From assembly GCA_016839055.1 (NCBI GenBank), contig JAEKNX010000002.1, positions 377,451-441,450 on the forward strand: a stretch of 64,000 nucleotides of DNA, written 5' to 3'. Below, piece after piece: positions 40,490 to 63,494 of this stretch; within the stretch, counting starts at the first letter, position 1; the number at the start of each line of letters is the position of its first letter. The notes beneath the pieces were generated by a model. The model was not told where the DNA came from. It did not search any database and saw only the letters and a list, made by a program, of their open reading frames with translations. The stretch is from Spirochaetales bacterium. Lineage in GTDB: Bacteria > Spirochaetota > Spirochaetia > UBA9216. The translations under genes were made by a program, and so were the position numbers.

Positions 40490-41110
40490 TCATGATTGAG
40501 GATCCAACCTGGCTCTGGACAGGATCCCGACGAGGTAACCGCCGAGAAAGGCTGCGTCTTCGGCAGGCAGGAAATTCGTTATATTATCAGAATAAAGAAT
40601 ATTGGCTTCTAAAGGGAACTCGTCATCGGCCTTAAAGATTTGAACAACCATATCAATCTTCGGAAAAACAGGGATAACCACTGAATAGTCTCCGGTGATC
40701 CACTTTTTCCCGCCAAGTGATGCACCAGCCTCGAGCAGCTCTTCGGGTCTTTTTATGAAATTGCTGATAAGTTTATCCAGAGCCCTCTGTTGAAACGACT
40801 TGAAATAAAACATGCCGCCCGGAATTCCTCTGAAACTGATGAATTCTCCCCTCACCGGGTTCTCGTCCATGGAGGTTAGGTAATGCAGAATAAGCACCTG
40901 CACAATGATTGGAACACCCTTGGTGATAAAACGAACTTCGGGCATGCTTATCTCATAAATCCCACTGAGAAAAGCAATTTTATAGGTTCCGTTTTCAAAT
41001 ATTGCTCCGGTTTTCCGGCATATTTCACCCGATTTTGCATTCTCAAGGATACAAGCCGCTTTATCATAGGCAACGAGCAGACTGTTCTCTATCTGCCTTG
41101 TGTTCGACAT
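40490..41110 (-). CDS. DUF3786 domain protein.
   Basis: 206 aa. Shares distributed sequence similarity with the paralog at 56628..57266. This family is recurrently found near corrinoid/acetyl-CoA pathway genes. Confidence 0.5.
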   Translation of the reverse strand: MSNTRQIENSLLVAYDKAACILENAKSGEICRKTGAIFENGTYKIAFLSGIYEISMPEVRFITKGVPIIVQVLILHYLTSMDENPVRGEFISFRGIPGGMFYFKSFQQRALDKLISNFIKRPEELLEAGASLGGKKWITGDYSVVIPVFPKIDMVVQIFKADDEFPLEANILYSDNITNFLPAEDAAFLGGYLVGILSRARLDPQS

Positions 41111-41265
41111 ATTCCCTCCATGAATACAAAGAATCTTCAGTATTTAAGGTTAGGGTGGGGTAAGTGAATTGTCAATTTATATTTTTAGAAGTTTTGCTTC
41201 TCAAAGTAAAGTATAGTATAATACAACGATATTGATTGTGTTTTTCCATTTTATGAGGAGTAAAT

Positions 41266-41952
41266 ATGAAAGATATTAAGAATGATCCCGCATTTGTAGA
41301 GGGGATGGAAGCTTTCTTGATGGGTGATTGGTCAGCTGCAAAAGATTCTTTTATGCAGCTGGAAAAACATTTCCCCGAGAATGATCATGTCATTTTCATT
41401 CTGGGTAATATCTATTATTCTCTAGGAGTACTGGATAAATCTATCGAATACTATAAAAAAACCATCGAGATTAGCGATGGCGATGTCTGCGGAAATGCCT
41501 ACTATAAAATAGGGGTAAGTTATTTTAAAATGGGGAAATTCACCGAAGCCCTGCAGGCATTCAAGCAGTCAATTCAGGCCGAGAAATCACAGCATGTCAT
41601 GGTTTATTATTATCTTGGGTTAATTTCCACTCACCTGGGCAATGATGAGCAGGCTATCAAATACTTTGATAAACTGCGTCTTGCGTCTCCCCAGACGAAA
41701 ATGGCTATATTTATTGAAGCTCAGTTAAAGGTGAAAAGACACGAGTTTGAAACGGCAATTGAATTGCTGCTGCAATTTCTGGAAGTTTCGCCTGAATTTG
41801 CCGAAGCCCATCACCTGCTCGGTGCAGCATATATGGGTCTGTATCAAAATATGAAAGCGCTCCGCTGCTTCAGAAAGGCTGTGGAATTGAATCCGGCTGA
41901 TAAAAGAAGTGCTATGGAAATTTCCAGACTATCTACTACCGACTGGCCTTAA
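41266..41952 (+). CDS. Tetratricopeptide repeat protein.
   Basis: Repeated 34-residue TPR-like units (e.g. AYYKIGVSYFKMGKFTEALQAFKQ). Confidence 0.6.
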   Translation: MKDIKNDPAFVEGMEAFLMGDWSAAKDSFMQLEKHFPENDHVIFILGNIYYSLGVLDKSIEYYKKTIEISDGDVCGNAYYKIGVSYFKMGKFTEALQAFKQSIQAEKSQHVMVYYYLGLISTHLGNDEQAIKYFDKLRLASPQTKMAIFIEAQLKVKRHEFETAIELLLQFLEVSPEFAEAHHLLGAAYMGLYQNMKALRCFRKAVELNPADKRSAMEISRLSTTDWP

Positions 41953-41962
41953 TTTGTAGTTT

Positions 41963-42745
41963 CTATCTTCTGAAAGCCTCCAGATAGGAATCAGCGTAGA
42001 TAGTCCGGTTCATAATGAGATCAGCCGTCAGAATTGCATTGACAAGTTCGGTATCGTTGACATTCAGTATCACTGCGTCCAGGCCGTGGGCAATTAACAT
42101 TGATACAAATATACGGTTTATTAGTCCTTTTTGAGTTGTGCCGTTAGAAATATTGCTCAATCCGCATACAATATGACAGGGCGGATCAGTAAAAAGTCCG
42201 AACTGGGAAGCTGCATTTAATATTTCAACCGACTGATCCTGCATGAACTTCAGGGGCATGATAATTGGATCAAGAAACAATCTGTCCGGGGGAATATCGT
42301 ATTCCATGAATTTGGCCACTATGGTTCCGGCATGCTCAATCCGTTTGTCGGCAGTGGTCGGACTTCCGCTTTCATCCATTACGAGGCCTATTATCGAAGC
42401 TTTATATTCTGCCACTATCGGCAGTAGCTCATCCAGCTTTTTCTCATCTGCTATTACCGAGTTAACCAGGGGCGGTTTTCTGCAGATGGGTATAGCCTCT
42501 TTAAGCATAACAAATTTGTTGTTGTCGATGGATATCGGCAGATCGACTTCTTCCTGCACCTGTTCAATCATCCAGCAGAGATCTTCGGGTTTATTCGAAA
42601 CCGCCCCCAGATTGACATCCAGATAATCGGCTTTCGCGTCGGCCTGCTGTCTTGCACATTCTTTTATTACATCACCGTCCTTATTCAGTACGGCCTCCTT
42701 GATTTTTTTAAAGCCTGTATTGATTCGCTCTCCTATCAGTATCAT
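41963..42745 (-). CDS. acsE: Methyltetrahydrofolate:corrinoid/iron-sulfur protein Co-methyltransferase.
   Basis: 260 aa. Pterin-binding TIM-barrel profile (MILIGERINTG...DYLDVN...). Position in the acs operon. Confidence 0.8.
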   Translation of the reverse strand: MILIGERINTGFKKIKEAVLNKDGDVIKECARQQADAKADYLDVNLGAVSNKPEDLCWMIEQVQEEVDLPISIDNNKFVMLKEAIPICRKPPLVNSVIADEKKLDELLPIVAEYKASIIGLVMDESGSPTTADKRIEHAGTIVAKFMEYDIPPDRLFLDPIIMPLKFMQDQSVEILNAASQFGLFTDPPCHIVCGLSNISNGTTQKGLINRIFVSMLIAHGLDAVILNVNDTELVNAILTADLIMNRTIYADSYLEAFRR

Positions 42746-42758
42746 TTTTATCCTCCTG

Positions 42759-43706
42759 TTATTGAATGATCTCGCGGATTGTCCGAATTGCTTCCGGATG
42801 CGCCATTATCAGGATGTCAGCCCCTGCCTGAAGGTAGCCTTCGGCACAGACCGCTTCCCACATGGGCCCCCGCTTTCGGGCCTCTCCCCATCCTTCAAGA
42901 ATGTCCTCGCCGACGGTTGCCTCTTTAGTGCGCCACACTTCTTCTCCTACATCGCATAACTGAGGTCGGGCCATTAGTTTATCTCCCTGCAGGCCTGCGC
43001 TGCGTGCCCGTTCCATTATTGTATAAACATAATCAAAGCCGTAACCGAGGGCCGCGGTTGTCTGGAACATGACAATATCATCAAGGCTGAAACCATTGTC
43101 ATCCAGGAGGATATTTACCTGTTTACCGATATTGATATCGACCGGGGCTTCTGATATGAGTTTATGTTTATCAGCCTTGCATATGGCCGCCATGGTTAAA
43201 TAATTTGACTCTGTTGCCGAACCCATCAGACAATTTTCACCCCGGGCAGCCTGTGAGCACTCCTGCAATATCAATCTGTCTTTTTCTTCATTTCCGCTGC
43301 CCCAGATTATAAGAGGAACATCGACGGTCTTAAGAAGATCCTCAATAAGTCCGGCACATTCTTCGGGTGATTTGTCTTTGGTTTCTGCGAGTCCTCCCCT
43401 CAATTTAATACTGATAAGGTTGACTCCGAATTCTTCCACAGCCTTCTGTGCCCACTCGAGGGGAGAATTTATTTCACTGCCAATTGCTTCTTTCAGGAAA
43501 TCCGGCCAATCAGGGACGATGTCGGATATATAACCGGCAATCACAGGAGGGTGAGGTGATTCTCCGTCAAATGACAGATGAGGCATAGCGCTCTGGCCGC
43601 CTATTGTAATGGTACTGCCCCTTGTTCCACCGTCGGCCTTAAGTGCGCCGATGGTAACAGTGCTGATGCGTGATTTGCTGGTTGTTCTTATTTCAGGTAT
43701 TTTCAT
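42759..43706 (-). CDS. acsD: Corrinoid iron-sulfur protein small subunit (CdhD-like).
   Basis: 315 aa TIM-barrel CFeSP small-subunit profile. Overlaps cooC by 14 nt. Confidence 0.8.
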   Translation of the reverse strand: MKIPEIRTTSKSRISTVTIGALKADGGTRGSTITIGGQSAMPHLSFDGESPHPPVIAGYISDIVPDWPDFLKEAIGSEINSPLEWAQKAVEEFGVNLISIKLRGGLAETKDKSPEECAGLIEDLLKTVDVPLIIWGSGNEEKDRLILQECSQAARGENCLMGSATESNYLTMAAICKADKHKLISEAPVDINIGKQVNILLDDNGFSLDDIVMFQTTAALGYGFDYVYTIMERARSAGLQGDKLMARPQLCDVGEEVWRTKEATVGEDILEGWGEARKRGPMWEAVCAEGYLQAGADILIMAHPEAIRTIREIIQ

Positions 43707-44460
43707 TATTGCCTCCTATTTTTTCTATAATCCGGTCAATTGCCGAGAGCACGGCTTTGCTCTTTAAACTGCTGATCGGCAGACTATTAAACACCAGGTC
43801 TTCAATTTCTTCCTCTTTTGGAATATCTGTAAGGAAATCCATACCCAGTTCATCGATTCTTTTATGAACCTCATCGAGTCTGTTTTTATTTACCATGGAG
43901 CTGACAACAAAGGTATTGGTTATTCGGCCATTCATTTCGGATACAATATCCTTTATTTTTGCCGCGCAGCTGAAGGATAGGGGGCTCTCGCTGACCACAA
44001 CAATCAAGGCATCGATGTTTGTCGTGGTACGCCGGCTAAGATGTTCAAGCCCCGCCTCATTATCAATTACTACCCAGCGGTAAGAGGGGGTCAGATCATC
44101 ACAGAACTTCCTTATCAGGCTGTTAATATAGCAATAGCAGCTCGCGCCCTCACCCTTGCCCATGGTAACAAGATCCCATCCTTCACGCTCTTCAATAATC
44201 TGATGCAGCCCGGATTCGATGTAATTCGCCTTGGTCATGCCTGCGGGGAATTCCTTTATGGTCTTAAGAAGATCCTCCCGTAGATCTCCGATTGTCTGTT
44301 CCGGTTCTATTCCAAGCAGAGTTCCCAGATTACAGTCCGGATCGGCGTCTACGGCGAGAACGGGGTTCATTCCTTTGTGGACGAGGCGGCTTATTAAAAG
44401 GGCTGCAATTGTAGATTTACCTGTGCCTCCTTTTCCGGCTACAGCAATGCTTTTTGTCAT
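43693..44460 (-). CDS. cooC: CooC/AcsF-type Ni-insertion ATPase (MinD/ParA fold).
   Basis: Deviant Walker A (AGKGGTGKST). 255 aa. Embedded between the RACo-like gene and acsD. Confidence 0.8.
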   Translation of the reverse strand: MTKSIAVAGKGGTGKSTIAALLISRLVHKGMNPVLAVDADPDCNLGTLLGIEPEQTIGDLREDLLKTIKEFPAGMTKANYIESGLHQIIEEREGWDLVTMGKGEGASCYCYINSLIRKFCDDLTPSYRWVVIDNEAGLEHLSRRTTTNIDALIVVVSESPLSFSCAAKIKDIVSEMNGRITNTFVVSSMVNKNRLDEVHKRIDELGMDFLTDIPKEEEIEDLVFNSLPISSLKSKAVLSAIDRIIEKIGGNNENT

Positions 44461-46328
44461 GAAATTGCCCTCCAGTAATCAATATCAGTATGAGGCAGAA
44501 ACATGGCTTTTTTGAATTCCTCGACGTAATCATCGGCTCCGAGCAAATCATAATAGGTTGTTGCGCTGCGTATTCTTGTAAGTTCATTGAAGGCTTCCTG
44601 ATAGAAGGCTGCCAATTTTGCTCCCTTGATGGATGTGTTACCGGAAAATTTAAATTTATCCAGAGGCAGAGGCGGCAGAAGCCCGATATTTATTGCATTT
44701 TCAATATTGAGATAATAGCCGAAGGCTCCTGCAATGTAGAAAGTATCGAGATCACTGAATTTTAGTGATAAACGCTGCATTATGATGGTGATGGCCGCAA
44801 AAATAGCAGCCTTGGCGGTTATAATATTTTCAATGTCCTTTTCTGTAAGATAAATACTGTTATCCTCTTGGTTAGTTTCTTCAACCAAAACAAAACGCCT
44901 TTTATTGGCTTCACCTGTTTCTGAGGTTCGGTTCTCATCGATGAACCGGCCGGAGCGATCAATAATCTTTTCATTAAGAAGGACACTCAAGAGATCTATG
45001 ATACCGGAGCCGCAAATTCCGATTGGTGGCTGCTTATTTATTGTCGAATACTTAATAATACCGGATTCGACAAAAACCTTATCCACGGCACCCGGTTCAG
45101 CACGCATGCCGCATTCGACACTTGCTCCTTCCAGCGCCGGTCCTGCGGAAGCCGAGGTGGCTACCAGCCAATCTCTGTTTCCGAGAATCACTTCCCCATT
45201 TGTCCCTATGTCTATGAGGAGCCCAAGCTCTTTCTTTTTGTACATTTGAACTGCCAGAATTCCGGCGGTCAGATCACTTCCTACCCAGCCGCTGATGCCG
45301 GGAAGTGAATAAAGCAGGCCGCGCTTGTTGACCTTCAATCCTACTTCGGAAGCCCGGAGTGGGGGCGGTTCGACGGTTACGGGGATAAATGGCTTACGTC
45401 GGATATTATTGGTCGAAAGATCAAGCAGGAAATGCTCCATAGCGGTATTCCCGGCACAGACAACAGCGTTAATATTCTTAATGTCCACATTGTTTCTTTC
45501 GCACAGCATAACGATTAGTCTGTTGATATCATCCACAAGTAATTTCTGCAGCACTTTTACACTTTTTCGTTCCGCGTGGATCATTCGGCCTGTGACCTCA
45601 CTCCCGTGAATCGATTGACTGTTGTAACATGATGCTGAATCGACAGTGGTTCTGGGATGTGCATTGACCAGATGGGCAACCACTGTGGTGGTTCCCATAT
45701 CTACAATAACCATATAGTTCGATGATTCTGTGTCGCCGCCTTCGATATTCATGATCTCGGCGATGTCTCTGCGCAGCCCCACTGTAATGGTTACTTTGTA
45801 ATTATTGTTACGGAGAACCTTCGGCAGTATTTTTATTATTTTCAGTCCCATCTGCATGGTAGGTATATTAAGACGTTTTTTTACGCCGTTTGAAACCAGT
45901 TGATGATCAGCCTGGCCCGAAAAGATAGTAGGCGGTTCAAATTCAATATAAATTTTAGTAACAACCGGGAGGGTTTTATAATGCAGCTCATTGATGTGAG
46001 GTTTATCTTCTTCGCCGAAATTTTCCGAGACTGGAGTGCTGTTGCCTTCTCCCCGGTGTTTTTTTGGTATCTCTACTGTCAGATCTTTATACACAAGGCT
46101 CAAACAGGCCAGCACCCATCCTTTTTTAATCTGAGCTTCATTAAAAGGCCATGAAACCTTGTCCGGAATATCTCCTTCTAAAATGATCATTTTGCATTTA
46201 CCGCATATTCCCTCACCGCCGCAGTTAGTATTCACCTCCAGGCCGGCTTTGCGGGCGGCTTCCAAAAGGGAAGTGCCGCTGCGTACGCTGACTGACTTGT
46301 TCGAAGGATAGAATTTAACTGAATGCAT
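44457..46328 (-). CDS. Reductive activator of corrinoid protein (RACo/AcsV-like). N-terminal plant-type [2Fe-2S] ferredoxin domain plus an ASKHA ATPase domain (DUF4445).
   Basis: N-terminal ...NCGGEGICGKCK... [2Fe-2S] ferredoxin motif. About 620 aa. The start ATG at 46328 overlaps the acsC stop (TAATG) and has a GGGGGA RBS. Confidence 0.7.
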   Translation of the reverse strand: MHSVKFYPSNKSVSVRSGTSLLEAARKAGLEVNTNCGGEGICGKCKMIILEGDIPDKVSWPFNEAQIKKGWVLACLSLVYKDLTVEIPKKHRGEGNSTPVSENFGEEDKPHINELHYKTLPVVTKIYIEFEPPTIFSGQADHQLVSNGVKKRLNIPTMQMGLKIIKILPKVLRNNNYKVTITVGLRRDIAEIMNIEGGDTESSNYMVIVDMGTTTVVAHLVNAHPRTTVDSASCYNSQSIHGSEVTGRMIHAERKSVKVLQKLLVDDINRLIVMLCERNNVDIKNINAVVCAGNTAMEHFLLDLSTNNIRRKPFIPVTVEPPPLRASEVGLKVNKRGLLYSLPGISGWVGSDLTAGILAVQMYKKKELGLLIDIGTNGEVILGNRDWLVATSASAGPALEGASVECGMRAEPGAVDKVFVESGIIKYSTINKQPPIGICGSGIIDLLSVLLNEKIIDRSGRFIDENRTSETGEANKRRFVLVEETNQEDNSIYLTEKDIENIITAKAAIFAAITIIMQRLSLKFSDLDTFYIAGAFGYYLNIENAINIGLLPPLPLDKFKFSGNTSIKGAKLAAFYQEAFNELTRIRSATTYYDLLGADDYVEEFKKAMFLPHTDIDYWRAIS

Positions 46329-47665
46329 TATTTCCCCCAAATTCTATTCAGAAATCCCGGAATCTCTTTTGCCGTTTCAGGACCTATTATTACCTCCTTC
46401 CATTCAGAGAGGTCTTCAATTTCCGCCTTGAAAACCGGCAGAAGCCCCGGAATGATCAGTTTTCGGTGTTTTACTTTTTCAGCAACCTTCTGGTCTTTGA
46501 GAGCCTTTAATATCTTTTCGACTGATATTTTGTCACCCGCCCAGGAGTTGAGCACTCCGAGACCCTCGGTTTCAACAACACAGATATAGGATGGTATTTT
46601 ACTTCTTTCCACTTCACCGGCTACACTGAAGTAGGTGAGGGAAAAGTTCGTTGTATACATTACCGGAGAGTTTTCATTGGGACTGCCGATTTCGTATAAT
46701 TTTGCTTCCACAGTATTGGGTACCTGTGGGTCGGTATATATGTCCTGAATAATAGTCAGATTGGGTGTCACCTGCCAGGCTTCCCGGCCCTTGATTAGTA
46801 CAATTCCGGAATATTTTGCCGCTGCCGCCGCAATTAAGACAGTCTCTATTTCTTCCGAATCACTTTCGAATTCACTGATTATCGGATAGCCGAAGGGACG
46901 GAATTTATTAATCAGGGCCGACCGTCTTACATGGGTTGAAAATCTGACAGCCTCTCCGATGTTCCCGCCCTTGAAGGAAAGAAGCATGTCTTCAACCCCG
47001 GCATCCTTTGCCTTGAGCGTGAAGTCGGCCAATTCTTCTAAGGTTCCGGCCGAGACTGCAAGGGGAAGTTTATTATCAGCCGCTATTTTAATAAAGTCAT
47101 CAATATTAGCGGCGGTCGCCCGGTATATAAGCGGCCTCTTGTCTTTAATGGCCGCTGCCGCCGTACTCATGGGAAGAGGATCTTCACCGGAGAGAATAAT
47201 CGGCAGACGGCTTTTATCTGCGGCGGTTTGTGCTCTTTCGGCCGGATTGCTGCAACCGTCCAGATCTATGGCACAGAACTCAACTTTTATTTCCTTGCCG
47301 ACCCTCGTGAAATTCCGGCTGTTTATCTCGTCTATACCACTTTCTAGTTCAGCAATAGAAAGATTGGCGGCAAGCTTGACGGCAAGGCCGCATTTTCGGT
47401 GAAACTTTTCTTCATGGCGATACATTACAGTTTCCTGGCCTGTTTCGAAGACTGTATCTCCGGATCCTATCTTCACCAGTTTCATGGGAGGTGAGGATTG
47501 CTCAGAAAGAGCCACTGTGGCTTCTTCAGAAATATCCGGGCAATCTGAGATTGCCTTCTGCTTCGCGGCAACCTGCATTGCAAAGGCCATACAGGTGGGA
47601 AAACCACATTTCTTACAGTTTGTCCTTGGAAGCTGTTTGTAGATTTGCATTCCTGTCAGTGCCAT
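46328..47665 (-). CDS. acsC: Corrinoid iron-sulfur protein large subunit.
   Basis: N-terminal [4Fe-4S] motif (CKKCGFPTCMAF...C). TIM-barrel plus C-terminal B12-binding region. 445 aa. Confidence 0.85.
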   Translation of the reverse strand: MALTGMQIYKQLPRTNCKKCGFPTCMAFAMQVAAKQKAISDCPDISEEATVALSEQSSPPMKLVKIGSGDTVFETGQETVMYRHEEKFHRKCGLAVKLAANLSIAELESGIDEINSRNFTRVGKEIKVEFCAIDLDGCSNPAERAQTAADKSRLPIILSGEDPLPMSTAAAAIKDKRPLIYRATAANIDDFIKIAADNKLPLAVSAGTLEELADFTLKAKDAGVEDMLLSFKGGNIGEAVRFSTHVRRSALINKFRPFGYPIISEFESDSEEIETVLIAAAAAKYSGIVLIKGREAWQVTPNLTIIQDIYTDPQVPNTVEAKLYEIGSPNENSPVMYTTNFSLTYFSVAGEVERSKIPSYICVVETEGLGVLNSWAGDKISVEKILKALKDQKVAEKVKHRKLIIPGLLPVFKAEIEDLSEWKEVIIGPETAKEIPGFLNRIWGK

Positions 47666-47695
47666 TTAAAAATCCTCCATAAATTAAGAATAGAA

Positions 47696-49912
47696 TTAGA
47701 ACATTTCATCCATTTCAAGAGCCGGGTGAGAAACCTTTTCAAGGAAGGTGACGAGCTCATCCGGTTCTTCGGCATCTTCCTCGGTGGCTATTTTCTCAAA
47801 TAAGTCCGTCAGGCCGTTGCTTTTGAGTCTTTCTTCCAGACGCGGGCCGATTTCATCTTTAAGCTGCTTGCTCATCCAGACGATACGCTGGTGTCCCCCT
47901 TCCGCAGAAATGAATTTATTACTGCTTATGTAGAGTTTACCTATGCCGATAAATCCTGGCACCTGAAGCCCTCCGCCTACCTGACCTGCCAGGGTTGAGA
48001 AGGTCATTCCAATTGGAGTCATACCTGTAAAATCCCGGTCAACAATCATAATCCCGTTTGCTTCCGGGACAATGGCCGCGATGCACTCGAAACAGCCGCA
48101 GGAGGTCATGGGATCTTCCATTATTGAATAAGCATTGAATTTGGCCAGTGTATTATTTGATTTTACTTTGATATAACTGTTGATGCCATCCCACTGTCCC
48201 TTAATCGGATCGATACTATTGCCTTTATTAACCGGCTCGTTTGGCCCATGTTTGTTTATCTGATAGGAAGCTTTGCTGTCCAGCCATGTATAGGCACCGC
48301 AGAGCCCGAGTCTTTCCGGAGTAATTATGCAGACATGATTGGGGGCATAGGACTGACACAGGGTACAGGAGTAAAACTGGTCCACATCTTCATCGGTCAT
48401 TCCGCCTATGCGGTCATCCCTGTCGGCATAGACCTCCCTGGCAATTTTATGAAGCTCTTCCACCTTGGCAGCATCGGTATAGAATTTTATCTGGACCCTG
48501 TCAACGATGGTTGAAAACTCATTATGCATGCGGGCCAGGATGATCTCGCCGAAATCCCTGACGGTGAATCCTTTTGATTGTGCATCCTTACTGATTCTGA
48601 GCCAGATAATGGCCCGCTGACCCATGTGGAATATTCCATTGGCACAGGAGATGAATTCATGCATTCTACGCTCAAGAACAGTCTCAAAGTCTTCCTGGAA
48701 CTCACGGCCGGCAACTTCCACCATCATTGCCAGCGGGTAGGCTTCTCCTTCCTTCATCTCATCTATTTCAGGTCCGATAATTTCTATCTTTCCGTCTTCC
48801 ACCTCAGAGAGAGGTTTCATCCGCAGCAGTTCGAAAGCCTCGGAGAATTTGCCGCCGAACTGTACATACATGTCTTCTTTTCGCACCCGCTCACCCTCAA
48901 AGCCGGCACCGTAAGGTACTGGTATTGGGATGTTTTCCACCTTGACTGTCAGGTCGCGCAGTTCTATTGCCCGGCCGATTATTTCATCGAGTTTAATTCC
49001 GGATATTACATGCTCAAAGTTGCATATTCCCGTGGGCAGTATTTCCGGAATATTTACATCGGAAATGACCGGGAACCCGAAGTTTATAGCTCCGGCGGCG
49101 GTGGCATATTTTTCATCGGTGATCAGCTGATCCTTTCCGGCGTCCTTGTCCGAACCTAAGGCCATGACAAAGGCGTGCACCCGGTCGTTGTTGTACATCA
49201 GAATTTCTCTGGTCGCTTTGGCGCTTCCTGCCTCAATGCCTCCGAAGGTCATGGCAGAGCGGGCGGCGAAATTGAGAGCATGTATTGCGGCTGTTATATC
49301 TTTGCCGAAGGGGACGAGAAAGGTGTCCCAGTTCATTTCAATTCTTTCTTCGGCCAGTTGTTCAGCAATTGATCGTCCATTGGTATTACCGGCAATAAAA
49401 ACGAGAATGTTTTTTTCCTGCAGTTCCCTGACAAGCTTTACCGCCTGAGCATTTGTTTCGGTGCAGCCTACTATCGCTGCAAATCCGGGCATTCTGCCGT
49501 CAACAAGTTTAATACCCTGAGAACGAAGAATATTGTCGCCTGAAAATCCCAGCCAGATGTCGTCGACGGAAGCTGCGCCGTTTAAATATTTAAGTGATTC
49601 GATAATTTCCTCTGCAATCAGGGTTGCGACACCCGAATCCAGGGTTTCACCGAGGTAGGGCAGCCATGTTTTTTCAGCAGGAATGGTTCCAAGCAGGCTG
49701 CGGGCCTCCTGGAGGGAAGACTCAAGATCCCCGAGCTGTTTTACCTTCTGCCCCAGAAACAGATACATAATGGGCAGGAAGTAAGCAGTATTGGGATAGG
49801 CTACAATGGATTCTTTCCCGTATTTTTTGACTGCTGTTTCCAGAGCTTCCGAGGCTCTGTCTACCATTTGGTGAGCTCCTCTTATAGCTGCCGTCGCAAT
49901 TATTTTAGACAT
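47696..49912 (-). CDS. acsB: Acetyl-CoA synthase catalytic subunit (A-cluster).
   Basis: 738 aa. Cys-Gly-Cys bridging motif (SCGCFEC) and upstream Cys residues for the [4Fe-4S] cluster. Typical length. Confidence 0.9.
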   Translation of the reverse strand: MSKIIATAAIRGAHQMVDRASEALETAVKKYGKESIVAYPNTAYFLPIMYLFLGQKVKQLGDLESSLQEARSLLGTIPAEKTWLPYLGETLDSGVATLIAEEIIESLKYLNGAASVDDIWLGFSGDNILRSQGIKLVDGRMPGFAAIVGCTETNAQAVKLVRELQEKNILVFIAGNTNGRSIAEQLAEERIEMNWDTFLVPFGKDITAAIHALNFAARSAMTFGGIEAGSAKATREILMYNNDRVHAFVMALGSDKDAGKDQLITDEKYATAAGAINFGFPVISDVNIPEILPTGICNFEHVISGIKLDEIIGRAIELRDLTVKVENIPIPVPYGAGFEGERVRKEDMYVQFGGKFSEAFELLRMKPLSEVEDGKIEIIGPEIDEMKEGEAYPLAMMVEVAGREFQEDFETVLERRMHEFISCANGIFHMGQRAIIWLRISKDAQSKGFTVRDFGEIILARMHNEFSTIVDRVQIKFYTDAAKVEELHKIAREVYADRDDRIGGMTDEDVDQFYSCTLCQSYAPNHVCIITPERLGLCGAYTWLDSKASYQINKHGPNEPVNKGNSIDPIKGQWDGINSYIKVKSNNTLAKFNAYSIMEDPMTSCGCFECIAAIVPEANGIMIVDRDFTGMTPIGMTFSTLAGQVGGGLQVPGFIGIGKLYISSNKFISAEGGHQRIVWMSKQLKDEIGPRLEERLKSNGLTDLFEKIATEEDAEEPDELVTFLEKVSHPALEMDEMF

Positions 49913-49969
49913 AATTCATACCCCCTGAATTATTGTATACTCCAAAGCTTCGAGATTGACCGGGAACAT

Positions 49970-53108: not shown

Positions 53109-53111
53109 TCT

Positions 53112-53642: not shown

Positions 53643-53646
53643 ACTA

Positions 53647-55572
53647 TCACTCCTGGTCCAGCACCTTTAGTGCCTGCTCATAGACCATGGGTTTGAGCTT
53701 AAGGAGTTTTCTTTTTTTATCGATGTGTCTGATCATTTTATGAGCGGCTTTGACGGGATCCTCTTCAAAGGCCCATTTGCCGCCGACTTCTGCTTCGATT
53801 TCATCGGTAAGGTAATTAAACATTTTTTTGCTGCCCATCATCGGAAGAGGCTTGCCTATCATGGTATATACACCCGAGGCTACAAAATAGAAACCGATTG
53901 AAACGGCTTTTTCACTCATCCATTCCGGCGCGGCGCCGGCCGCCGGCAGATCGGAGATGTCATTTCCAAGACCGCCTTCGGCTACGATATTGGACAGAAC
54001 CCGCAGGATGCGGCTGTTATCCACACATGAACCCATGTGCAGCACCGGAGGAATGCCAACTGTACGGCAGATTTCCTGCAGACCCTTTCCCGCGTATTTA
54101 AAAGCTGATTCTGGCTGCAGCAGTCCGTGCTTCGCACAGGATATGGCATTGCAGCCGGTGACAACCACCAGTACATCGTTTTTAATCAGTTCCTTGACCA
54201 TCTGGATATGGCCGCTTTCGTAAGGCACATTCGGATTTGAGCAGCCGATAACGCCCGCGGCTCCCCTCAGGCGGCCTTCTTTGATAGCGTTGTTCAGCGG
54301 CCGGTAGGTGGCCCTGTATTTTCCGCCGAGAAAATCAAATACCGATTCGGCGGTAAAACCCGCTACCATCGGCTCTTTCTCCGACGGCAGATAGACAGAT
54401 TCTTTATTTCGTCTGGAATAATTGTCTATAGCAATCTCTATTATCTCTTTGGAGGTCTTAATCGCGTCTGTCTCATGGAATTCTATATGCTTCACTCCGG
54501 GAATCTTTGCCTTATCCGAAGTTGTCACGAGTTCGGTATGAAAACAATCCGCTACTGCCTTAAGGCCGGGCATTATACACTGCACATCGACAATCATCAT
54601 GTCGACGACTCCTGTCATGATCGCGAGTTCCTGCTGCAGAAAACTACCGGCAACCGGAATTCCTCGTCTCATCAGAATTTCATTGGCTGTACAGCATATT
54701 CCAGCTATGTTTATCCCTGTAGCTCCTGCATCCTTTGCCTTTTTATCCATCTCATCAGAGGTGGCTATCTCGGCTATGATGTCGGAGAGGGCAGGTTCAT
54801 GACCGTGTACAATAACGTTTATTTTAGCTTCATCCATAACACCGAGGTTGGCGCTTGATTTCAGGGGGTTAGGTGTACCGTACAGAATGTCTTGAAGTTC
54901 AGTGGCCACCATTGACCCGCCCCAGCCGTCGGCGAGGGACGTCCTCATTCCATGATTTATCAGATGACGGTATTCGGCATCCACTCCCATATGGGTACGG
55001 TGCATGGTTTCGACAACTTCTCTGTCGATGCTGCGGGGCATAATGTTTAGTTCTTTCCATAGTTTTATTCTGGTTTCCGGAGCGGTTCCTGCTGTCTTTA
55101 GAAATCCATCCTGCCGGCCGAATTCATTTTTTGCTTCGCTTACCAGGTCGAGTGCTATCTCTTTTGCGCTTCGATCTTTTGTTTTTAAGCCGTAGATCTC
55201 GGCGACTGCCCTTAGTTTTGCTTCATCTTTGATTTTGTATGCTGAATCTCCTTCGGCTGCCATCTGAAGAGTATGAACAACGGTTCGGCCGTGATCCGAG
55301 TGGGCGGCAGCACCGGCGGCGATCATACGGCAGAGATGCCGGGCCGCAATGGTATCTGCGTCGGCTCCGCAAACTCCCACCTGGGGCCCATCCCCGAATG
55401 GATCAATTCGGCAGGGCCCCATGGAGCAGTGCCGGCAGCATAAACCAAGCTGCCCGAACCCGCACTGGGGCTGCATGGCCTCGAACCTGTCCCAGACTGT
55501 CTGCATATTCTCTTTTGCGGCAAATTTAATCATTTTTTGAGTGGCTTCATCGGAAAACGAATGGTCCATCAT
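53647..55572 (-). CDS. cooS: Ni,Fe carbon monoxide dehydrogenase catalytic subunit.
   Basis: 641 aa. N-terminal CGFGQLGLCCRHCSMGPCRI D/B-cluster motif. CODH/prismane-fold profile. Confidence 0.9.
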   Translation of the reverse strand: MMDHSFSDEATQKMIKFAAKENMQTVWDRFEAMQPQCGFGQLGLCCRHCSMGPCRIDPFGDGPQVGVCGADADTIAARHLCRMIAAGAAAHSDHGRTVVHTLQMAAEGDSAYKIKDEAKLRAVAEIYGLKTKDRSAKEIALDLVSEAKNEFGRQDGFLKTAGTAPETRIKLWKELNIMPRSIDREVVETMHRTHMGVDAEYRHLINHGMRTSLADGWGGSMVATELQDILYGTPNPLKSSANLGVMDEAKINVIVHGHEPALSDIIAEIATSDEMDKKAKDAGATGINIAGICCTANEILMRRGIPVAGSFLQQELAIMTGVVDMMIVDVQCIMPGLKAVADCFHTELVTTSDKAKIPGVKHIEFHETDAIKTSKEIIEIAIDNYSRRNKESVYLPSEKEPMVAGFTAESVFDFLGGKYRATYRPLNNAIKEGRLRGAAGVIGCSNPNVPYESGHIQMVKELIKNDVLVVVTGCNAISCAKHGLLQPESAFKYAGKGLQEICRTVGIPPVLHMGSCVDNSRILRVLSNIVAEGGLGNDISDLPAAGAAPEWMSEKAVSIGFYFVASGVYTMIGKPLPMMGSKKMFNYLTDEIEAEVGGKWAFEEDPVKAAHKMIRHIDKKRKLLKLKPMVYEQALKVLDQE

Positions 55573-55766
55573 TTTTCTCCCTTTTTTTATATAAGCTTAA
55601 GGTGAAAAATACATCCGAAATGGACTTAATGCTCAGGCCTGATAACCCGGATTCATAATAATCGTAAACCGAATTATCAAATAATGCAACTTTAAGATTA
55701 ATATTTTGATATTTAACCCGACATGATTAGATGTTTGGTTAAAAGTTTTCATTTATTTCTTATATT

Positions 55767-56552
55767 TCAGTTTTTAGAGGTTATTTTGCTGATTTCTGTT
55801 AAAATCTGATTGAACTCCTCAAGGGAACCTTCTGTCAGTGCATCCAGAATTGAGACCCCTGGTCTGTCGGCCTTCCGGAACTCCTCCCTGAAGGAGATAA
55901 ATCCGAGTATTTTCGCATCGGGCAGGGCTTTTTTTATGAATTCCCGGTCATCCTGCTCCTTTATTTTATTGCCGACAACATAAACTCTCAATAGACCGAT
56001 TTCTCCAGATAGCTCAAATATTTTTCGGGCACATTCAATCGACATCTGTCCCGGTTCGACGACGACCAGCATTATATCGACTCCGCCTGCCGTTGCTCTG
56101 CCGAGATGTTCGATCCCCGCCTCCATGTCCAGGAGTAATGTCTCATCCTTATGCAGAATAAGGTCCCGGACCAAAGCCCGGAGCAGAACGTTTTCAGGAC
56201 AGGCGCAGCCGCCCCCGCCTCTGCGGATTGCTCCGAGGACCAGAAGGGAGATTCCCCTGTAGAGGGTTGCGTAGGTATCACTGATATCCGATACTTCGGG
56301 GTTCAGTTTAAACATCTGGCCGTATTGATTGACCTTAGCCCCTGTACGCTCTTCAATCAGTTCTGTCTGTTTCGATATGGGAATGATCTTATCCTGCATT
56401 TCACGGGGCATCCCCAGAGCTGCGGCCAGGTTAGCGTCGGGATCGGCATCAATGGCAAGCACCTTGTTTCCCTTTTCAGTTAAAAGAAGGGCCAGGGCGG
56501 AGGAGATAGTCGACTTTCCGACGCCGCCTTTTCCAGTGATCGCTATTTTCAT
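55767..56552 (-). CDS. cooC: CooC-type CODH nickel-insertion ATPase (second paralog).
   Basis: Walker A (GKGGVGKST). 261 aa. Directly upstream of cooS. Confidence 0.8.
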   Translation of the reverse strand: MKIAITGKGGVGKSTISSALALLLTEKGNKVLAIDADPDANLAAALGMPREMQDKIIPISKQTELIEERTGAKVNQYGQMFKLNPEVSDISDTYATLYRGISLLVLGAIRRGGGGCACPENVLLRALVRDLILHKDETLLLDMEAGIEHLGRATAGGVDIMLVVVEPGQMSIECARKIFELSGEIGLLRVYVVGNKIKEQDDREFIKKALPDAKILGFISFREEFRKADRPGVSILDALTEGSLEEFNQILTEISKITSKN

Positions 56553-56627
56553 TTTCTCCTCCTTTTTGCTCTTGTTTCATTATAAGTCACTGATTAAATA
56601 TTTCTCAAGGAAAATCGTTTTTAATAA

Positions 56628-57266
56628 ATGACAATTCAATTTCTCTCTTATACAATTACAGGTATGGAAGAGCAAAAAAAAGCATATTGGGAACCTAAGC
56701 TGTGGGAAGAATTAAGGTCACAGGATCCGGCGAGGATCTGTGAGCGATCCGGGGCTGATTATGATCCCGGCGGATTCTATGAGATCAGCTCTCTGGACAG
56801 AAGGGTAAGGATCTATCCAGAGGAAGAACGGCTGGAGTCCGACGATTTGGAACTTGCTTCCAGCATGGAATATCAGCTGCTCTTGGTTTCTTATCTCCTC
56901 TATGCCCAGAATATTGATCCGACAGGGGAATGGGTGTCGGAAAAGGATCTAAAGGGCGGCAGTCTCTTCTTTCGCGGTCCCCACGCGGTTCCCTCTGCTC
57001 CTCTGGAAAGACAGTTCGGTAGTGATGCCAAGGGATTCCGGGAGAAAGCACTCACCCTCGGCGGCCGCCCCGCAGAATTCGGGGACCTGTCGATGGTTTT
57101 TCAAATCCTGCCCCGTATTTCATTTGCCGTTGTTCTGTGGGTTAAAGATGAGGAATTTCCGGCCCGCGTCACATTCATGTTCGATTCATCGATTGATGCC
57201 CATCTGCCCCTGGATGTGATATTTGCCATGACGCAGGCGGCTGCTCAAAAACTGCTGGGCGAATAG
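56628..57266 (+). CDS. DUF3786 domain protein (second paralog).
   Basis: 212 aa. The only plus-strand gene inside the cluster. An alternative start is possible at 56664 (MEEQKK). Confidence 0.5.
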   Translation: MTIQFLSYTITGMEEQKKAYWEPKLWEELRSQDPARICERSGADYDPGGFYEISSLDRRVRIYPEEERLESDDLELASSMEYQLLLVSYLLYAQNIDPTGEWVSEKDLKGGSLFFRGPHAVPSAPLERQFGSDAKGFREKALTLGGRPAEFGDLSMVFQILPRISFAVVLWVKDEEFPARVTFMFDSSIDAHLPLDVIFAMTQAAAQKLLGE

Positions 57267-57672: not shown

Positions 57673-58248
57673 TTAATAAATTGTATTAATAATGCGCTGA
57701 AAATCCTTTTGAGAGTTAATATTGACAAATGAGCTGTAATCAGGGTCCAGGCTGCGGATAATATCATCTTCAGCGTACTTTACCCGGACATACTCATAGA
57801 ATGAAATTATCCGCCGTTTCGGAAGAGTTTTTTCGATGAAAGGAATACAGCTTTTACGGTAGGCCGCGAACAGGGGTTCGGTATAGCCTCCGTGGTGAGG
57901 AACGTGCGCATCGTAATCTCCGATTTTCTTCACAAGCCAGGCCACGAGGGCGGGACTCATGAAAGGCGAATCTACAGTCGTTACAAAATTTATATTCGAA
58001 CTGCTTTCCCTCAGCCCGCTGTAGAGACCCATGAGCGGACCCTGTCCCGGTTTTTCATCGGTGATGATGCGGGCGGGGATGTTTCGGTAGGCTTCGGTTT
58101 TATTTACTACTACTATTATCTCTTTGAACATTGGGGATAGCTGTCTAATTTTGCGCTCAATAAAGGGTTCGCCTTCAATTGTCAAAAAGGCTTTATCAAG
58201 GCCGCCTATTCTCTCTCCATTGCCGCCTGACAGGATGATACAGGTCAT
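57673..58248 (-). CDS. mobA: Molybdenum cofactor guanylyltransferase.
   Basis: N-terminal ILSGGNGERIGGLDKAF nucleotide-binding motif. 191 aa. Start/stop junction with fdhA. Confidence 0.7.
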   Translation of the reverse strand: MTCIILSGGNGERIGGLDKAFLTIEGEPFIERKIRQLSPMFKEIIVVVNKTEAYRNIPARIITDEKPGQGPLMGLYSGLRESSSNINFVTTVDSPFMSPALVAWLVKKIGDYDAHVPHHGGYTEPLFAAYRKSCIPFIEKTLPKRRIISFYEYVRVKYAEDDIIRSLDPDYSSFVNINSQKDFQRIINTIY

Positions 58249-60965
58249 TACCGGCCTGATTTCTCCACTTTAACGGCACAGACCTTGAGCTCGGGGATCT
58301 TCGCAATTGGATCGAGGGCGGCGATGGTCAGGGCGTTAGCCGGGTGTTCATGAAAATGAAAAGCCATGAATACTGTACCTTCTGGTACCCTATTTGTGAT
58401 GTTGGCCTTCACTTCAATTTTACCCCGGCGTGATGATACGATGAGCAAATCTCCGCTTTTAACACCGAGGCGGCCTGCGTCGGACTCGCTGATTTCCAGT
58501 GCCCCCTGAGGAACGAGATCGTCGAGTACTCTGCATTTTCGGGTCATTGTGCCGGTATGCCAATGCTCGAGCATTCTGCCGGTAGTGAGGATAATGGGAT
58601 ACTCGCTGTCGGGCATCTCCCGGGGCGGAAGAAACTCAACCAGATGGAATTTACCAAGGCCCCTGGCAAAGCTGTCTTTATGCAGGTATTGGGTTCCCCC
58701 GTGGCTAACATCCGGACAGGGCCACTGCAGTCCTGTCTTCTCGAGGCGCGGATAGGTAATTCCGGCATAGCTCGGTGTGAGCCGGCATATTTCCTCCTGA
58801 ATCTCCTCTGCACTTCGGTAATTCATTGAATAACCCATTTTTTCAGCAAGATTACCTATGATTCTCCAGTCTTCCAGGGCCTCACCCGGAGGCTCTACGG
58901 CCTTGCGTACACGCTGAACCCGCCGCTCGGTATTTGTAAAGGTTCCGTTCTTCTCGGCAAAGCAGCAGGCGGGCAGGACTATATCGGCCAGACGGGCTGT
59001 CTCTGAGAGAAAGATATCCTGCACAAGGAGGAAATCGAGGTTTTCAAGTCCCTTTTGTACATGGTTAATATCGGGATCGCTTAGCATCGGGTTCTCGCCC
59101 ATGATGTAGAGTCCCCGAATTTCCCCAACGGCCGCGGCGTTCATTATTTCGACTACAGTCAGTCCGGGAACCGCTGGGAGCGCACAACCCCAGGCCGCCT
59201 CAAACTTGCCTCTTGCCGCCGGATCATCCACCTTCTGGTAGCCTGAATAAACATTCGGCAGCGCCCCGAGGTCACAGGCACCCTGAACGTTGTTCTGCCC
59301 GCGCAGGGGATTCACTCCGGAGGCTTCTTTACCTACATTGCCGCTCATCATGGCAAGGTTGGCAAGGGCCATAACATTGTCGGTTCCACTTGTGTGCTGG
59401 GTTATTCCCATAGAGTAGATGATTGAAGCCGATTCAGCCCCGGCATAAACTCTGGCTGCCCGGCGTATAGCCTCAGCGGGAACACCGGTGATTTTCTCAG
59501 CAAACTCGGGGGTGTTTTTCATTATCGAGTCATGGATTTCCTCGAATCCTTCAGTGCGTTCGGCTATGAAGCGGCTGTCTTCAAGCCCCTCACTAAGGAT
59601 GACGTTCATAAGGGCATTGATCAGCGCTACATCGGTTCCCGGTCTCTGGCGCAGATGGATATCGGCAATTCCTGCCAGAGAGATTCGGCGGGGATCGGCT
59701 ACTATAAGCTTTGTTTTGTCCCCGGCGACAGCCTTTCGGATATTTATGCCGATTATTGGATGACATTCGGTTGTGTTGGAACCGATGACGAAGATGACCG
59801 GAGCCCTTCCAATTTCAGCTATGCTGTTTGTCATGGCGCCGCTGCCGAAGGCCCGCGCCAGCCCCGCAACTGTGGAGGCATGACACAGCCGGGCGCAGTG
59901 GTCGACATTATTAGTGCCAAGCACCGCTCGGACGAATTTCTGCATTACGAAATTTTCTTCGTTCGTGGTCCGGGCAGATGAGAGTCCGGCTAGGGCCTGC
60001 GGCCCGTATTTATCTTTGAGCCCGGTAAGCCGCCTGGCTGCCAGGGAAAGGGCTTCGTCCCAGGAGGCTTCCCGGAAAATGCCCTCTTCCTTGATGAGGG
60101 GAACCCGGAGGCGTTCTTCGCTGCTAATGAAATCGAAACCGAATCGTCCCTTGACGCAGGTGTTGCCGTCGTTCGGAATGACCCCTGTTTCACTCGTTAC
60201 CCTGACGATTTTGCCCGTCCTGCGGTGGACGTTCAAATCGAGCTGACAGCCGACTCCGCAGTAGTTACAGGTGGTACGGACTTTCCGGAGGTCTTTGGCC
60301 CGTGCCAGCCTGCGGGCGGGATATTCATACAGGGCTCCGGTTGGACAGGTGCTGACGCACTGGCCGCAGGTTTCGCATGGAGATTCCTTAAGCGGTAAAT
60401 CCAGGCCTGTGCTGATTATCACATCCGCTGTGCGGCCCCTGATAGTGAGGGCTTCGGCTCCCTGTACTTCGCGGCAGATTTTAACACAACGCTGGCAGCT
60501 GATGCATTTTGACGGATCGTATTTAATCGCGAGATTATAGCTGGTATAGTTAAAATCCCTGATCTTTCGATGCAGGAAGGGGTAGCGGTTTTCATTTACC
60601 TGGTACTGGTAGGCGTAATCCTGTAGCAGGCAGTCTCCATCACTGTCACAGGTTGTGCAGGAAAGGCGGTGTTCGCTGATCAGCAGTTCCAGGGTCGCTC
60701 TGCGCATGGACATAATTTCCTTTGTCGCTGTACGGATAACCATCCCGTCTTCGGCTTCCCTTGTGCAGGCTGTCTGAAGGCCCCTCTGGCCTTCAATTTC
60801 CACGAGACAGAGGCGGCAGGCGCCTGTTGGGGTGAGCCTGTCATCATGGCAGAGGTGAGGGATGTCTACACCATTCTCCCCGGCTATTTCCAGAATGGTT
60901 CGGCCGGACCGGCAATTAACCTTTCGTCCGTCCAATGTAATTTTAACTTCTGCCATAAGCGACAT
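58248..60965 (-). CDS. fdhA: Formate dehydrogenase catalytic subunit, Mo/W-bisPGD, with an N-terminal NuoG-like [2Fe-2S] and [4Fe-4S] domain. Cysteine-type.
   Basis: 905 aa. N-terminal CxxC...C ferredoxin motifs, then a molybdopterin oxidoreductase body. Active-site region CARLCHASTVAGL, with Cys where FdhF has Sec. Confidence 0.85.
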   Translation of the reverse strand: MSLMAEVKITLDGRKVNCRSGRTILEIAGENGVDIPHLCHDDRLTPTGACRLCLVEIEGQRGLQTACTREAEDGMVIRTATKEIMSMRRATLELLISEHRLSCTTCDSDGDCLLQDYAYQYQVNENRYPFLHRKIRDFNYTSYNLAIKYDPSKCISCQRCVKICREVQGAEALTIRGRTADVIISTGLDLPLKESPCETCGQCVSTCPTGALYEYPARRLARAKDLRKVRTTCNYCGVGCQLDLNVHRRTGKIVRVTSETGVIPNDGNTCVKGRFGFDFISSEERLRVPLIKEEGIFREASWDEALSLAARRLTGLKDKYGPQALAGLSSARTTNEENFVMQKFVRAVLGTNNVDHCARLCHASTVAGLARAFGSGAMTNSIAEIGRAPVIFVIGSNTTECHPIIGINIRKAVAGDKTKLIVADPRRISLAGIADIHLRQRPGTDVALINALMNVILSEGLEDSRFIAERTEGFEEIHDSIMKNTPEFAEKITGVPAEAIRRAARVYAGAESASIIYSMGITQHTSGTDNVMALANLAMMSGNVGKEASGVNPLRGQNNVQGACDLGALPNVYSGYQKVDDPAARGKFEAAWGCALPAVPGLTVVEIMNAAAVGEIRGLYIMGENPMLSDPDINHVQKGLENLDFLLVQDIFLSETARLADIVLPACCFAEKNGTFTNTERRVQRVRKAVEPPGEALEDWRIIGNLAEKMGYSMNYRSAEEIQEEICRLTPSYAGITYPRLEKTGLQWPCPDVSHGGTQYLHKDSFARGLGKFHLVEFLPPREMPDSEYPIILTTGRMLEHWHTGTMTRKCRVLDDLVPQGALEISESDAGRLGVKSGDLLIVSSRRGKIEVKANITNRVPEGTVFMAFHFHEHPANALTIAALDPIAKIPELKVCAVKVEKSGR

Positions 60966-60979
60966 CCTTAAACAAAAAT

Positions 60980-62845
60980 CTATTTGACGGCCACTGCGTC
61001 AAAGGGGCAGACATCCATGCATTCGCCGCAGCGGATGCAAAGGGCCGGATTGATAATATGAGGTGTTTTTTTCTCCCCCCTGATTGCGTCAACGCTACAG
61101 ACCTTGATGCATTTCCCACAGGCCCGGCAGGCCTCGGCGATAATGGAATACTCGATCAGATTTTTGCAGACACCGGCGGGGCATCGGCCGTCGTTGATAT
61201 GGGCTTCATACTCTTTTCTAAAATATCTGATTGTAGTAAGAACCGGGTTGGGGGCGGTTTGACCGAGTCCGCAGAGCGATCCTTTTTTTACTACCCCGGA
61301 TAGATCCTCAAGCTTTTTAATATCTCCCGGCCGGCCCCGGCCGCTGCAGATATCCGTCAAGAGGTTTACCATATGTTGAGTGCCAACCCTGCAGGGAACA
61401 CATTTGCCGCAGGACTCCTTCTGCACGAAATCGAGGAAAAACCGCGCCATATCGACCATGCAGGTGCGATCATCCATGACTATCAGTCCTCCGGAGCCTA
61501 TGATAGCTCCGAGTTCCTTCACAGACTCGTAGTCGAGAGGCAGATCGAGAAATTCATCAGGAATACAGCCTCCTGAGGGGCCGCCTATTTGGGCTGCCTT
61601 GAACGTCCTTCCGCCTGGAATACCGCCGCCGATGTCAAAGACTATTCGGCGCAGCGTAGCTCCAAGCGGAACTTCCACCAGTCCGGTATTGATAACCTTT
61701 CCGGCCAGTGCGAAGATCTTGGTTCCTCTGCCGTCCGGGGTTCCTATGGCGGAAAACCAGGTCTTTCCCTTTTCGATTATGAGGGGCACGTTAGCAAGGG
61801 TTTCCACATTGTTGATATTGGTGGGCATTCCCTTGAATCCCTTTACTGCTGGAAACGGGGGCCGGGGACTGGGCATTCCCCGTTCACCCTCGAGGGAAGC
61901 TATCAGCGCTGTCTCTTCCCCGCAGACAAAGGCGCCGGCTCCCATGCGGATCTCAATGTCGAAACTGAAACCGGAACCGAAAATATTTTTCCCAAGAAGG
62001 CCGCAGGCGCGGGCCTGCTCGGATGCAATTGTTATATGTTCTACGGCGATAGGGTATTCCGCTCTGACATAGATGAAGCCCCGGGAAGCACCAATGGCAA
62101 ATGCCGCGATGATCATGCCTTCGATAATTTGATGAGGGTTTCCCTCAAGCAGGGCCCTGTCCATAAAAGCACCCGGGTCGCCTTCATCAGCGTTACAGAT
62201 TAAATATTTCTGCTCACCTTCTGCCCGGCGGCAGAATCGCCATTTCTGCCCTGTCAGAAATCCGGCTCCGCCCCGGCCCCTGAGTCCGGAATTTAAGACC
62301 TCATCAATTATTTCCTCCGGGGACATCTTCGTCAGTGCCCGGGCCGCGGCCTGATAAGCACCGGCAGCCACTGCCGATTCCAGCTTCCTGGGATCAACCC
62401 TTCCGCAGTTTTTGAGAACTTCTTTGCTCTGATGCTGGAAAAAAGGAAGCTCATCCGGATCGGCTGTGGTATTTCCATCCGCGTCGGCGCAGAGTCTTGC
62501 CACCGGGAGGCCCCCTTTGAGGGTTTTCTCGATGATTTCATCCACGTCATCGGGGCTGACGCCACCATAGAGAAAATGTTCCGGCTCGATAAGAAGGACA
62601 GGGGCACGGGAACATTGGCCGTGACAGCCTGTTTCGATGATCTCAAATTCCTCTTCGAGCCCGGCCATGCGGAGTTTTTCATGAAATGCCTTTCCTACTT
62701 CTTCTGCTCCGAGGGCCCGGCATCCTGTCATGCAGAGCAGAATCTGCTTCCGGGAAACTTTTTCTGCCGTAATTCGTTTTCTGAAAATCTCCAGATCATC
62801 AGGATAGGCAATAACAGGATAGGTCATCGTTTCTTCCTTATTCAT
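60980..62845 (-). CDS. NuoF/HydB-like NAD(P)H-binding FMN flavoprotein subunit (second paralog).
   Basis: 621 aa. Domain order matches 50818..52659. GAGFLTGQKW FMN motif. C-terminal CRACGKCIKVC and CIRCGECMDVC clusters. Confidence 0.8.
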   Translation of the reverse strand: MNKEETMTYPVIAYPDDLEIFRKRITAEKVSRKQILLCMTGCRALGAEEVGKAFHEKLRMAGLEEEFEIIETGCHGQCSRAPVLLIEPEHFLYGGVSPDDVDEIIEKTLKGGLPVARLCADADGNTTADPDELPFFQHQSKEVLKNCGRVDPRKLESAVAAGAYQAAARALTKMSPEEIIDEVLNSGLRGRGGAGFLTGQKWRFCRRAEGEQKYLICNADEGDPGAFMDRALLEGNPHQIIEGMIIAAFAIGASRGFIYVRAEYPIAVEHITIASEQARACGLLGKNIFGSGFSFDIEIRMGAGAFVCGEETALIASLEGERGMPSPRPPFPAVKGFKGMPTNINNVETLANVPLIIEKGKTWFSAIGTPDGRGTKIFALAGKVINTGLVEVPLGATLRRIVFDIGGGIPGGRTFKAAQIGGPSGGCIPDEFLDLPLDYESVKELGAIIGSGGLIVMDDRTCMVDMARFFLDFVQKESCGKCVPCRVGTQHMVNLLTDICSGRGRPGDIKKLEDLSGVVKKGSLCGLGQTAPNPVLTTIRYFRKEYEAHINDGRCPAGVCKNLIEYSIIAEACRACGKCIKVCSVDAIRGEKKTPHIINPALCIRCGECMDVCPFDAVAVK

Positions 62846-63317
62846 ATTTTTCCAGAATAGATTTGATTTTGTCCGGCTTAAGCTGTCCGTAATAGTCCTC
62901 GTCCACCATCATGACAGGGGCAAGAAAACAAGTACCCATGCAGGCGACAATTTCGAAGGTAAAGCGCATATCCTTCGTCGTCGCCCCCGGTTCTATCTCC
63001 AGTTCTTTGCTTATACGTTCGCTGATGCGTGGACTTCCTTTGACATGGCAGGCCGTTCCTTCGCAGATGCGGACAGTATGCCGGCCATGGGGTTTTGTGT
63101 GAAATTGGGTATAGAAGGTAATAACACCATGCATGCGGCTTGTGGGAATTCCTGTTTGCCCGCTGACCCATTTCAGGACGGGAACTGGAAGGTAGCCGTA
63201 AGCTTCCTGGAGTTTTTGCAGAATAGGGATCAGGCTGTCAGGTTCTGTGTTTTTCATTTCGGATAAGATTTTTTCAGCTGGCCCGAGATCAATCGCGGGC
63301 GATTGGGTTTTCGGCAT
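62838..63317 (-). CDS. NuoE/HydC-like [2Fe-2S] subunit (second paralog).
   Basis: 159 aa. CEGTACHVKG ... CMGTCFLAP cysteine pattern. Overlaps the downstream flavoprotein gene. Confidence 0.75.
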   Translation of the reverse strand: MPKTQSPAIDLGPAEKILSEMKNTEPDSLIPILQKLQEAYGYLPVPVLKWVSGQTGIPTSRMHGVITFYTQFHTKPHGRHTVRICEGTACHVKGSPRISERISKELEIEPGATTKDMRFTFEIVACMGTCFLAPVMMVDEDYYGQLKPDKIKSILEKYE

Positions 63318-63460: not shown

Positions 63461-63494
63461 TGATTTTTATCGATCCTTCAGGTGCAGAATGTTA

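Follow-up and report, generated by a model that had tools for sequence, protein, structure and literature searches.

The classical acs operon of the Moorella thermoacetica type, whose gene order we take to be cooC-acsA-acsB-acsC-acsF-acsD-acsE, is one described system with which a bacterial CODH/ACS locus can be compared. In the acetogenic spirochetes of the termite gut (Treponema primitia, Hollandina) a hydrogen-dependent CO2 reductase has been reported as the key CO2-reducing enzyme. A third system, the predicted Codh-Bfu, was described from four sequences, all from Firmicutes, is viewed as a stand-alone CO oxidiser and has never been purified (PMC9304861; PMC12318220).

In this study we analysed a window of 64,000 nt, meaning the whole stretch of DNA under consideration, from an NCBI 'Spirochaetales bacterium' MAG; the spirochete is described as free-living. 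The region is chromosomal, derives from an uncultured Spirochaetales bacterium and encodes the enzymes for both CO2 reductions of the Wood-Ljungdahl pathway in two adjacent putative transcription units, bfuC2-bfuB2-fdhA-mobA and (cooC1)-cooS-cooF-bfuC-bfuB-bfuA-acsB-acsC-acsV-cooC2-acsD-acsE. The second unit specifies a bacterial CODH/ACS in full, together with the corrinoid protein, a methyltransferase, a reductive activator and a pair of Ni-insertion ATPases; between its cooS and acsB stand the genes for a polyferredoxin, CooF, and for a BfuCBA module. Overall the cluster is an ordinary one for the pathway, with a single interesting, putative variant. Its genes and their flanks are as follows.

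62838..63317, minus strand: bfuC2, NuoE/HydC-like [2Fe-2S] subunit (PF01257 1.2e-50; NuoE NF005722 150 bits)
60980..62845, minus strand: bfuB2, NuoF/HydB-like FMN subunit (Complex1_51K, NADH_4Fe-4S, 2Fe-2S_thioredx, Fer4)
58248..60965, minus strand: fdhA, Mo/W-bisPGD formate dehydrogenase (TIGR01591 875 bits; Fer2_4, NADH-G_4Fe-4S_3, Molybdopterin)
57673..58248, minus strand: mobA, molybdenum cofactor guanylyltransferase (PF12804 4.4e-33; MobA NCBIfam matches)
56628..57266, plus strand: DUF3786 paralogue b, divergent from cooC1 (PF12654 7.7e-43)
55767..56552, minus strand: cooC1, Ni-insertion P-loop ATPase (CbiA, ArsA and NifH-type P-loop matches)
53647..55572, minus strand: cooS, Ni,Fe CO dehydrogenase catalytic subunit (TIGR01702 686 bits; Prismane 3.9e-176)
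53112..53642, minus strand: cooF-like polyferredoxin (Fer4_11; 16 Cys, 4 x [4Fe-4S])
52656..53108, minus strand: bfuC1, NuoE/HydC-like [2Fe-2S] subunit (PF01257 3.8e-51)
50818..52659, minus strand: bfuB1, FMN/NAD(H) subunit of the bifurcating core (full-length match to WorB 9mqx_B, 771 bits)
49970..50815, minus strand: bfuA1, short BfuA (Fer2_4 and Fer4 only)
47696..49912, minus strand: acsB, acetyl-CoA synthase, A-cluster subunit (NF040764 1007 bits; CODH_A_N, CdhC, ACS_CODH_B_C)
46328..47665, minus strand: acsC (PRK04165 489 bits; FeS and CdhD domains)
44457..46328, minus strand: acsV/RACo, reductive activator of corrinoid protein (RACo_C_ter, Raco_middle, RACo_linker, Fer2; AcsV NF040756 at 554 bits, under the 800-bit cut-off)
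43693..44460, minus strand: cooC2, AcsF-like Ni-insertion ATPase (CbiA and AAA_31; CxC at C108/C110)
42759..43706, minus strand: acsD, corrinoid Fe-S protein, small subunit (NF003376 333 bits; CdhD)
41963..42745, minus strand: acsE, methyl-H4folate:corrinoid methyltransferase (PRK07535 261.5 bits, cut-off 259; Pterin_bind)
41266..41952, plus strand: TPR protein gene (TPR families)
40490..41110, minus strand: DUF3786 paralogue a

All gene calls made between 40.5 and 63.3 kb in a first-pass annotation were borne out by Pfam and NCBIfam, with unchanged coordinates, and the motifs that it had read by eye are present (CCRHCSMGPCR at residues 45-55 of CooS, SCGCFEC at 604-610 of AcsB). As it had proposed, a single 23-kb block holds the two enzymes that reduce CO2, together with the factors for their maturation and the corrinoid machinery. 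The Wood-Ljungdahl assignment holds for the carbonyl branch and the FDH, but the methyl branch is missing from the window: fhs, folD and metF were not found among the genes of its 64,000 nt. The view that nearly every gene belongs to the pathway was right as to the identities, but the TPR gene has no known pathway link. Cluster-ligand motifs are present in CooS. The two CooC paralogues, at 34% identity to each other, both carry the CxC motif (C116/C118, GGCAC, in CooC1), and the AcsB product is 100% identical to MBI9105993.1.

The eleven genes from cooS to acsE are indeed co-oriented and tightly packed, their junctions measuring between -14 and +57 nt; with cooC1, which precedes cooS by 194 nt in the same orientation, the co-oriented run comes to 12 genes. 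Three of the overlaps described earlier are real (ATGA at bfuC1/bfuB1, TAATG at acsC/RACo, ATGA at RACo/cooC2). The fourth, an ATGA at 50818-50821, is not: the letters there read TTGA, and if translation begins at the ATG that NCBI chose (50815), a 2-nt gap is left. For RACo a start at an upstream TTG was rejected in favour of the ATG of the TAATG at 46328. The gaps measure 4 nt between cooS and cooF, 3 nt between cooF and bfuC and 57 nt before acsB. Each gene of the operon has a Shine-Dalgarno sequence, and a scan of the operon gaps found no terminator-like site in any of them. Operon status is consistent, at the level of sequence, with the tight junctions, the Shine-Dalgarno sequences, the missing terminators and the conserved gene order. 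Three putative regulatory elements were noted.

56579..56608, minus strand: best sigma-70-like promoter match, TTGAGA-18-TATAAT, upstream of cooC1 (11/12 matches)
55661..55689, minus strand: conserved promoter-like element TTGCAT-17-TACGAT, in the 194-nt cooC1-cooS gap
55602..55625, minus strand: conserved box GTCC-N5-CGGA-GTATTTTTCA, in the putative cooS leader

The first is the top match of the region scan, picked by consensus match only. The second scores 8/12, under the scan threshold, and its hexamers and spacing are common to the window and the relatives L082/L083, L001 and L084. The box is almost invariant in four distinct relatives, and an Rfam search with it gave no match. Given the promoter-like element upstream of cooS and the 57-nt gap before acsB, more than one transcript is possible.

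The 12-gene order recurs in four metagenomic relatives (L082, L001, L084 and L086), whose BfuA identity to the window ranges from 80 to 52%. The TPR gene, convergent with acsE across a 10-nt gap, keeps its place and orientation in L001 and L082 and is absent in L084. A DUF3786 gene occupies the position of paralogue b in L001, L082 and L084 and lies farther upstream in L086; both DUF3786 genes of the window are known by family name only.

The most interesting component of the block is the BfuCBA electron-bifurcation module. Its genes had been listed as three flavin/FeS subunits, which is correct but under-interpreted: they are BfuC, BfuB and BfuA, members of a family of HydABC-like enzymes that bifurcate electrons. 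The closest solved relative of BfuB and BfuA is WorABCSL, the electron-bifurcating tungsten aldehyde oxidoreductase of Acetomicrobium mobile (9MQX). BfuB1 has the full domain set, and it matches the experimentally bifurcating WorB, NiFe-HydB and HydB at full length with 738-771 bits (NiFe-HydB 7t2r_B 764 bits, T. kivui HydB 758 bits). Its B2-site residues are C454, T492, H541, C547 and C552, and the aligned positions of BfuB2, at 52% identity, are C, C, H, C and C; this His/Cys signature, kept in both proteins, is missing from non-bifurcating NuoF homologues. BfuC1 has cysteines at 74, 79, 115 and 119. BfuA1 consists of [2Fe-2S], 2x[4Fe-4S] and a C-terminal Cys4 domain, and lacks both a catalytic domain and a His-ligated cluster domain. 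It matches WorA (9mqx_A) at full length with 164 bits, and its AF2 model (pLDDT 88) superposes on that chain with a target-normalised TM of 0.89, Cys4 domain included. C214, C217, C244 and C247 are invariant among 35 homologues; the 27-residue C-terminal tail is not conserved and has low model confidence. CooF is related to HycB3/HycB4 of HDCR and matches WorS (9mqx_E) at full length with 75 bits.

The FDH block is a second Bfu module, of the Fdh-Bfu type. It opens with bfuC2 (four cysteines, at 85, 90, 126 and 130), which overlaps bfuB2 by 8 nt; BfuB2 has a 2Fe-2S domain at its N-terminus and a 2x[4Fe-4S] domain at its C-terminus. FdhA carries a fused NuoG/BfuA-like FeS domain at its N-terminus and is of the cysteine type (Cys361, CARLCH motif at residue 357), not selenocysteine; its closest solved relatives are the alpha subunits of NAD-dependent FDHs 9WXB and 6TG9 (780-783 bits). 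The mobA/fdhA junction is a TAATG overlap. Between the FDH operon and an upstream MCP-like ORF lies an inverted repeat with 24-nt arms (63411..63466), likely a candidate terminator of the upstream gene or a candidate operator.

Our preferred reading, which we hold with slightly better than even confidence, is that of a two-unit locus with an NADH/ferredoxin-coupled CooS-CooF-BfuABC and a long residence in the spirochete clade. Each CO2-reducing enzyme lies beside its own NADH/ferredoxin electron-splitting module, hence CODH/ACS may run partly on NADH. CooS would exchange electrons with CooF, CooF would dock on BfuA, which is short and WorA-like, in the manner of WorS in the solved WorABCSL, and the BfuBC core would couple the CooF electrons to NAD(H) and ferredoxin jointly. 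In the CO2-fixing direction NADH and reduced ferredoxin together would drive CO2 to CO; for oxidation, CO or the carbonyl group of acetyl-CoA would reduce NAD+ and ferredoxin simultaneously. The FDH unit would perform the equivalent coupling for CO2/formate. The CO2/CO potential (-520 mV) is more negative than that of NADH and ferredoxin averaged (about -400 mV), and reduction with this pair would be feasible only because ACS holds CO very low; that the reductive direction requires very low CO is our assumption.

It might be possible that the locus encodes a canonical, ferredoxin-dependent CODH/ACS and that BfuCBA (with CooF) is a separate, co-regulated NADH/ferredoxin redox balancer not bound to CooS. 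Characterised CODH/ACS enzymes use ferredoxin, and the domains of CooS are those of an ordinary Ni-CODH, with nothing unusual among them. Moreover, the trio is widespread, and the majority of its distant relatives sampled in genomes adjoin neither cooS nor acsB; the module is generic, with a partner to be inferred for each locus. A further point against our preferred reading is that a rough NJ tree does not unite the ACS-linked BfuB sequences in one clade. However, linkage of bfu to cooS/acsB recurs in at least six other phyla, in several gene orders: bfuCBA-cooS-acsB in Phycisphaerae, Myxococcales and Anaerolineales, acsB-cooF-bfuCBA-acsC in Firestonebacteria, bfuA-bfuC-bfuB-cdhC in Bathyarchaeia, and bfu adjoining cooS or acsB in Terriglobia and one Bacillota contig. 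In the window cooS, cooF, bfuC and bfuB are joined by 3-4 nt gaps and ATGA overlaps, and a BfuA without catalytic domain is of Type 2, for which the family scheme requires extra subunits to bring the electrons of the third substrate. We thus consider a separate redox balancer unlikely, while giving it some weight.

CooS is closer to the stand-alone CODH 6T7J (734 bits) than to the CODH subunits of CODH/ACS (637 bits, and 507 bits for Moorella AcsA), and we infer its pairing with AcsB from gene order only. A nearest structure that is a non-ACS CODH would fit a stand-alone CO-oxidising Codh-Bfu, for scavenging or detoxification, that sits within the acs operon while AcsB uses free CO or another CODH. 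ACS-less Codh-Bfu clusters have been published in Firmicutes, and two of our loci (L059, L016) have bfu with cooS but lack acsB as far as their sequence extends. Against this, AcsB keeps its N-terminal CODH-docking domain, the operons of the window and the four relatives each have a single cooS, and cooS lies directly between bfuA and acsB in three other phyla. Such an independent CO oxidiser appears decidedly improbable to us.

As to residence, the proposal of a 23-kb autotrophy module that moves horizontally failed each test run (mobility genes, repeats, composition, plasmids, relatives). The neighbouring genes are housekeeping genes with no integrase or transposase among them, a tRNA search found none, and flanking repeats were looked for and not found. 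The acs genes deviate in GC3 by less than 1 sd from the remaining window; the GC3 of the FDH genes, somewhat higher (0.54 versus 0.48 background), would suit a mobile cassette, as would the compact packing of both CO2-reducing enzymes and the view that termite-gut spirochetes gained their Wood-Ljungdahl pathway by transfer. Among 72,556 plasmid records a single AcsB match was found (43% identity, in a 2.6-Mb record). The named AcsB relatives at 74-91% identity all come from Spirochaetota, with many MAGs among them, except for one KSB1 record, which again could speak for mobility. Furthermore, the block is not a fixed unit, because relatives have the FDH operon exchanged for Hdr/MvhD, MetF/MetV or FTHFS genes. 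A mobile cassette therefore seems very improbable; the operon would rather be long established in the spirochete clade than a recently mobile island.

Compared with known systems, the locus shares with the Moorella thermoacetica-type operon the Ni-CODH, AcsB, AcsC/AcsD, AcsE and CooC/AcsF-type ATPases in a tight, co-oriented array. In the window, however, cooF and three Bfu genes part cooS from acsB, RACo/AcsV is included in the operon, and the flanks carry a TPR gene and two genes of the DUF3786 family. Treponema primitia and Hollandina belong to the same phylum and have a Wood-Ljungdahl pathway with CODH/ACS, whereas the FDH of the window is tied to NuoEF/HydBC-type subunits and the block has no hydrogenase gene. 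FdhA shares the fused NuoG-like N-terminus and Cys active site with Fdh-Bfu type FDHs and FdsABG (R. capsulatus, 6TG9), and aligns at full length with FdsA of the non-bifurcating, NAD-dependent FdsABG. Its flavoprotein partner differs in being of the long HydB type, with both terminal FeS domains and the B2-site His; FdsB aligns only to residues 122-537 of the HydB-type subunit from the window and thus lacks both terminal extensions. WorABCSL likewise has a short BfuA with a Cys4 C-terminal domain and no His-ligated cluster, and a CooF-related polyferredoxin partner, but its catalytic module is a tungstopterin enzyme in place of the Ni-CODH. Finally, cooS-cooF-bfuCBA matches, by its gene content, the hitherto only predicted Codh-Bfu enzyme. 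Codh-Bfu, or CodhABCSF, has the same parts (Schut et al. 2022, PMC9304861; PMC12318220), with BfuA, BfuB, BfuC, CooS and a CooF-type polyferredoxin clustered and a BfuA without catalytic domain. The version described here differs in belonging to Spirochaetota and in lying inside a complete acs operon, beside acsB.

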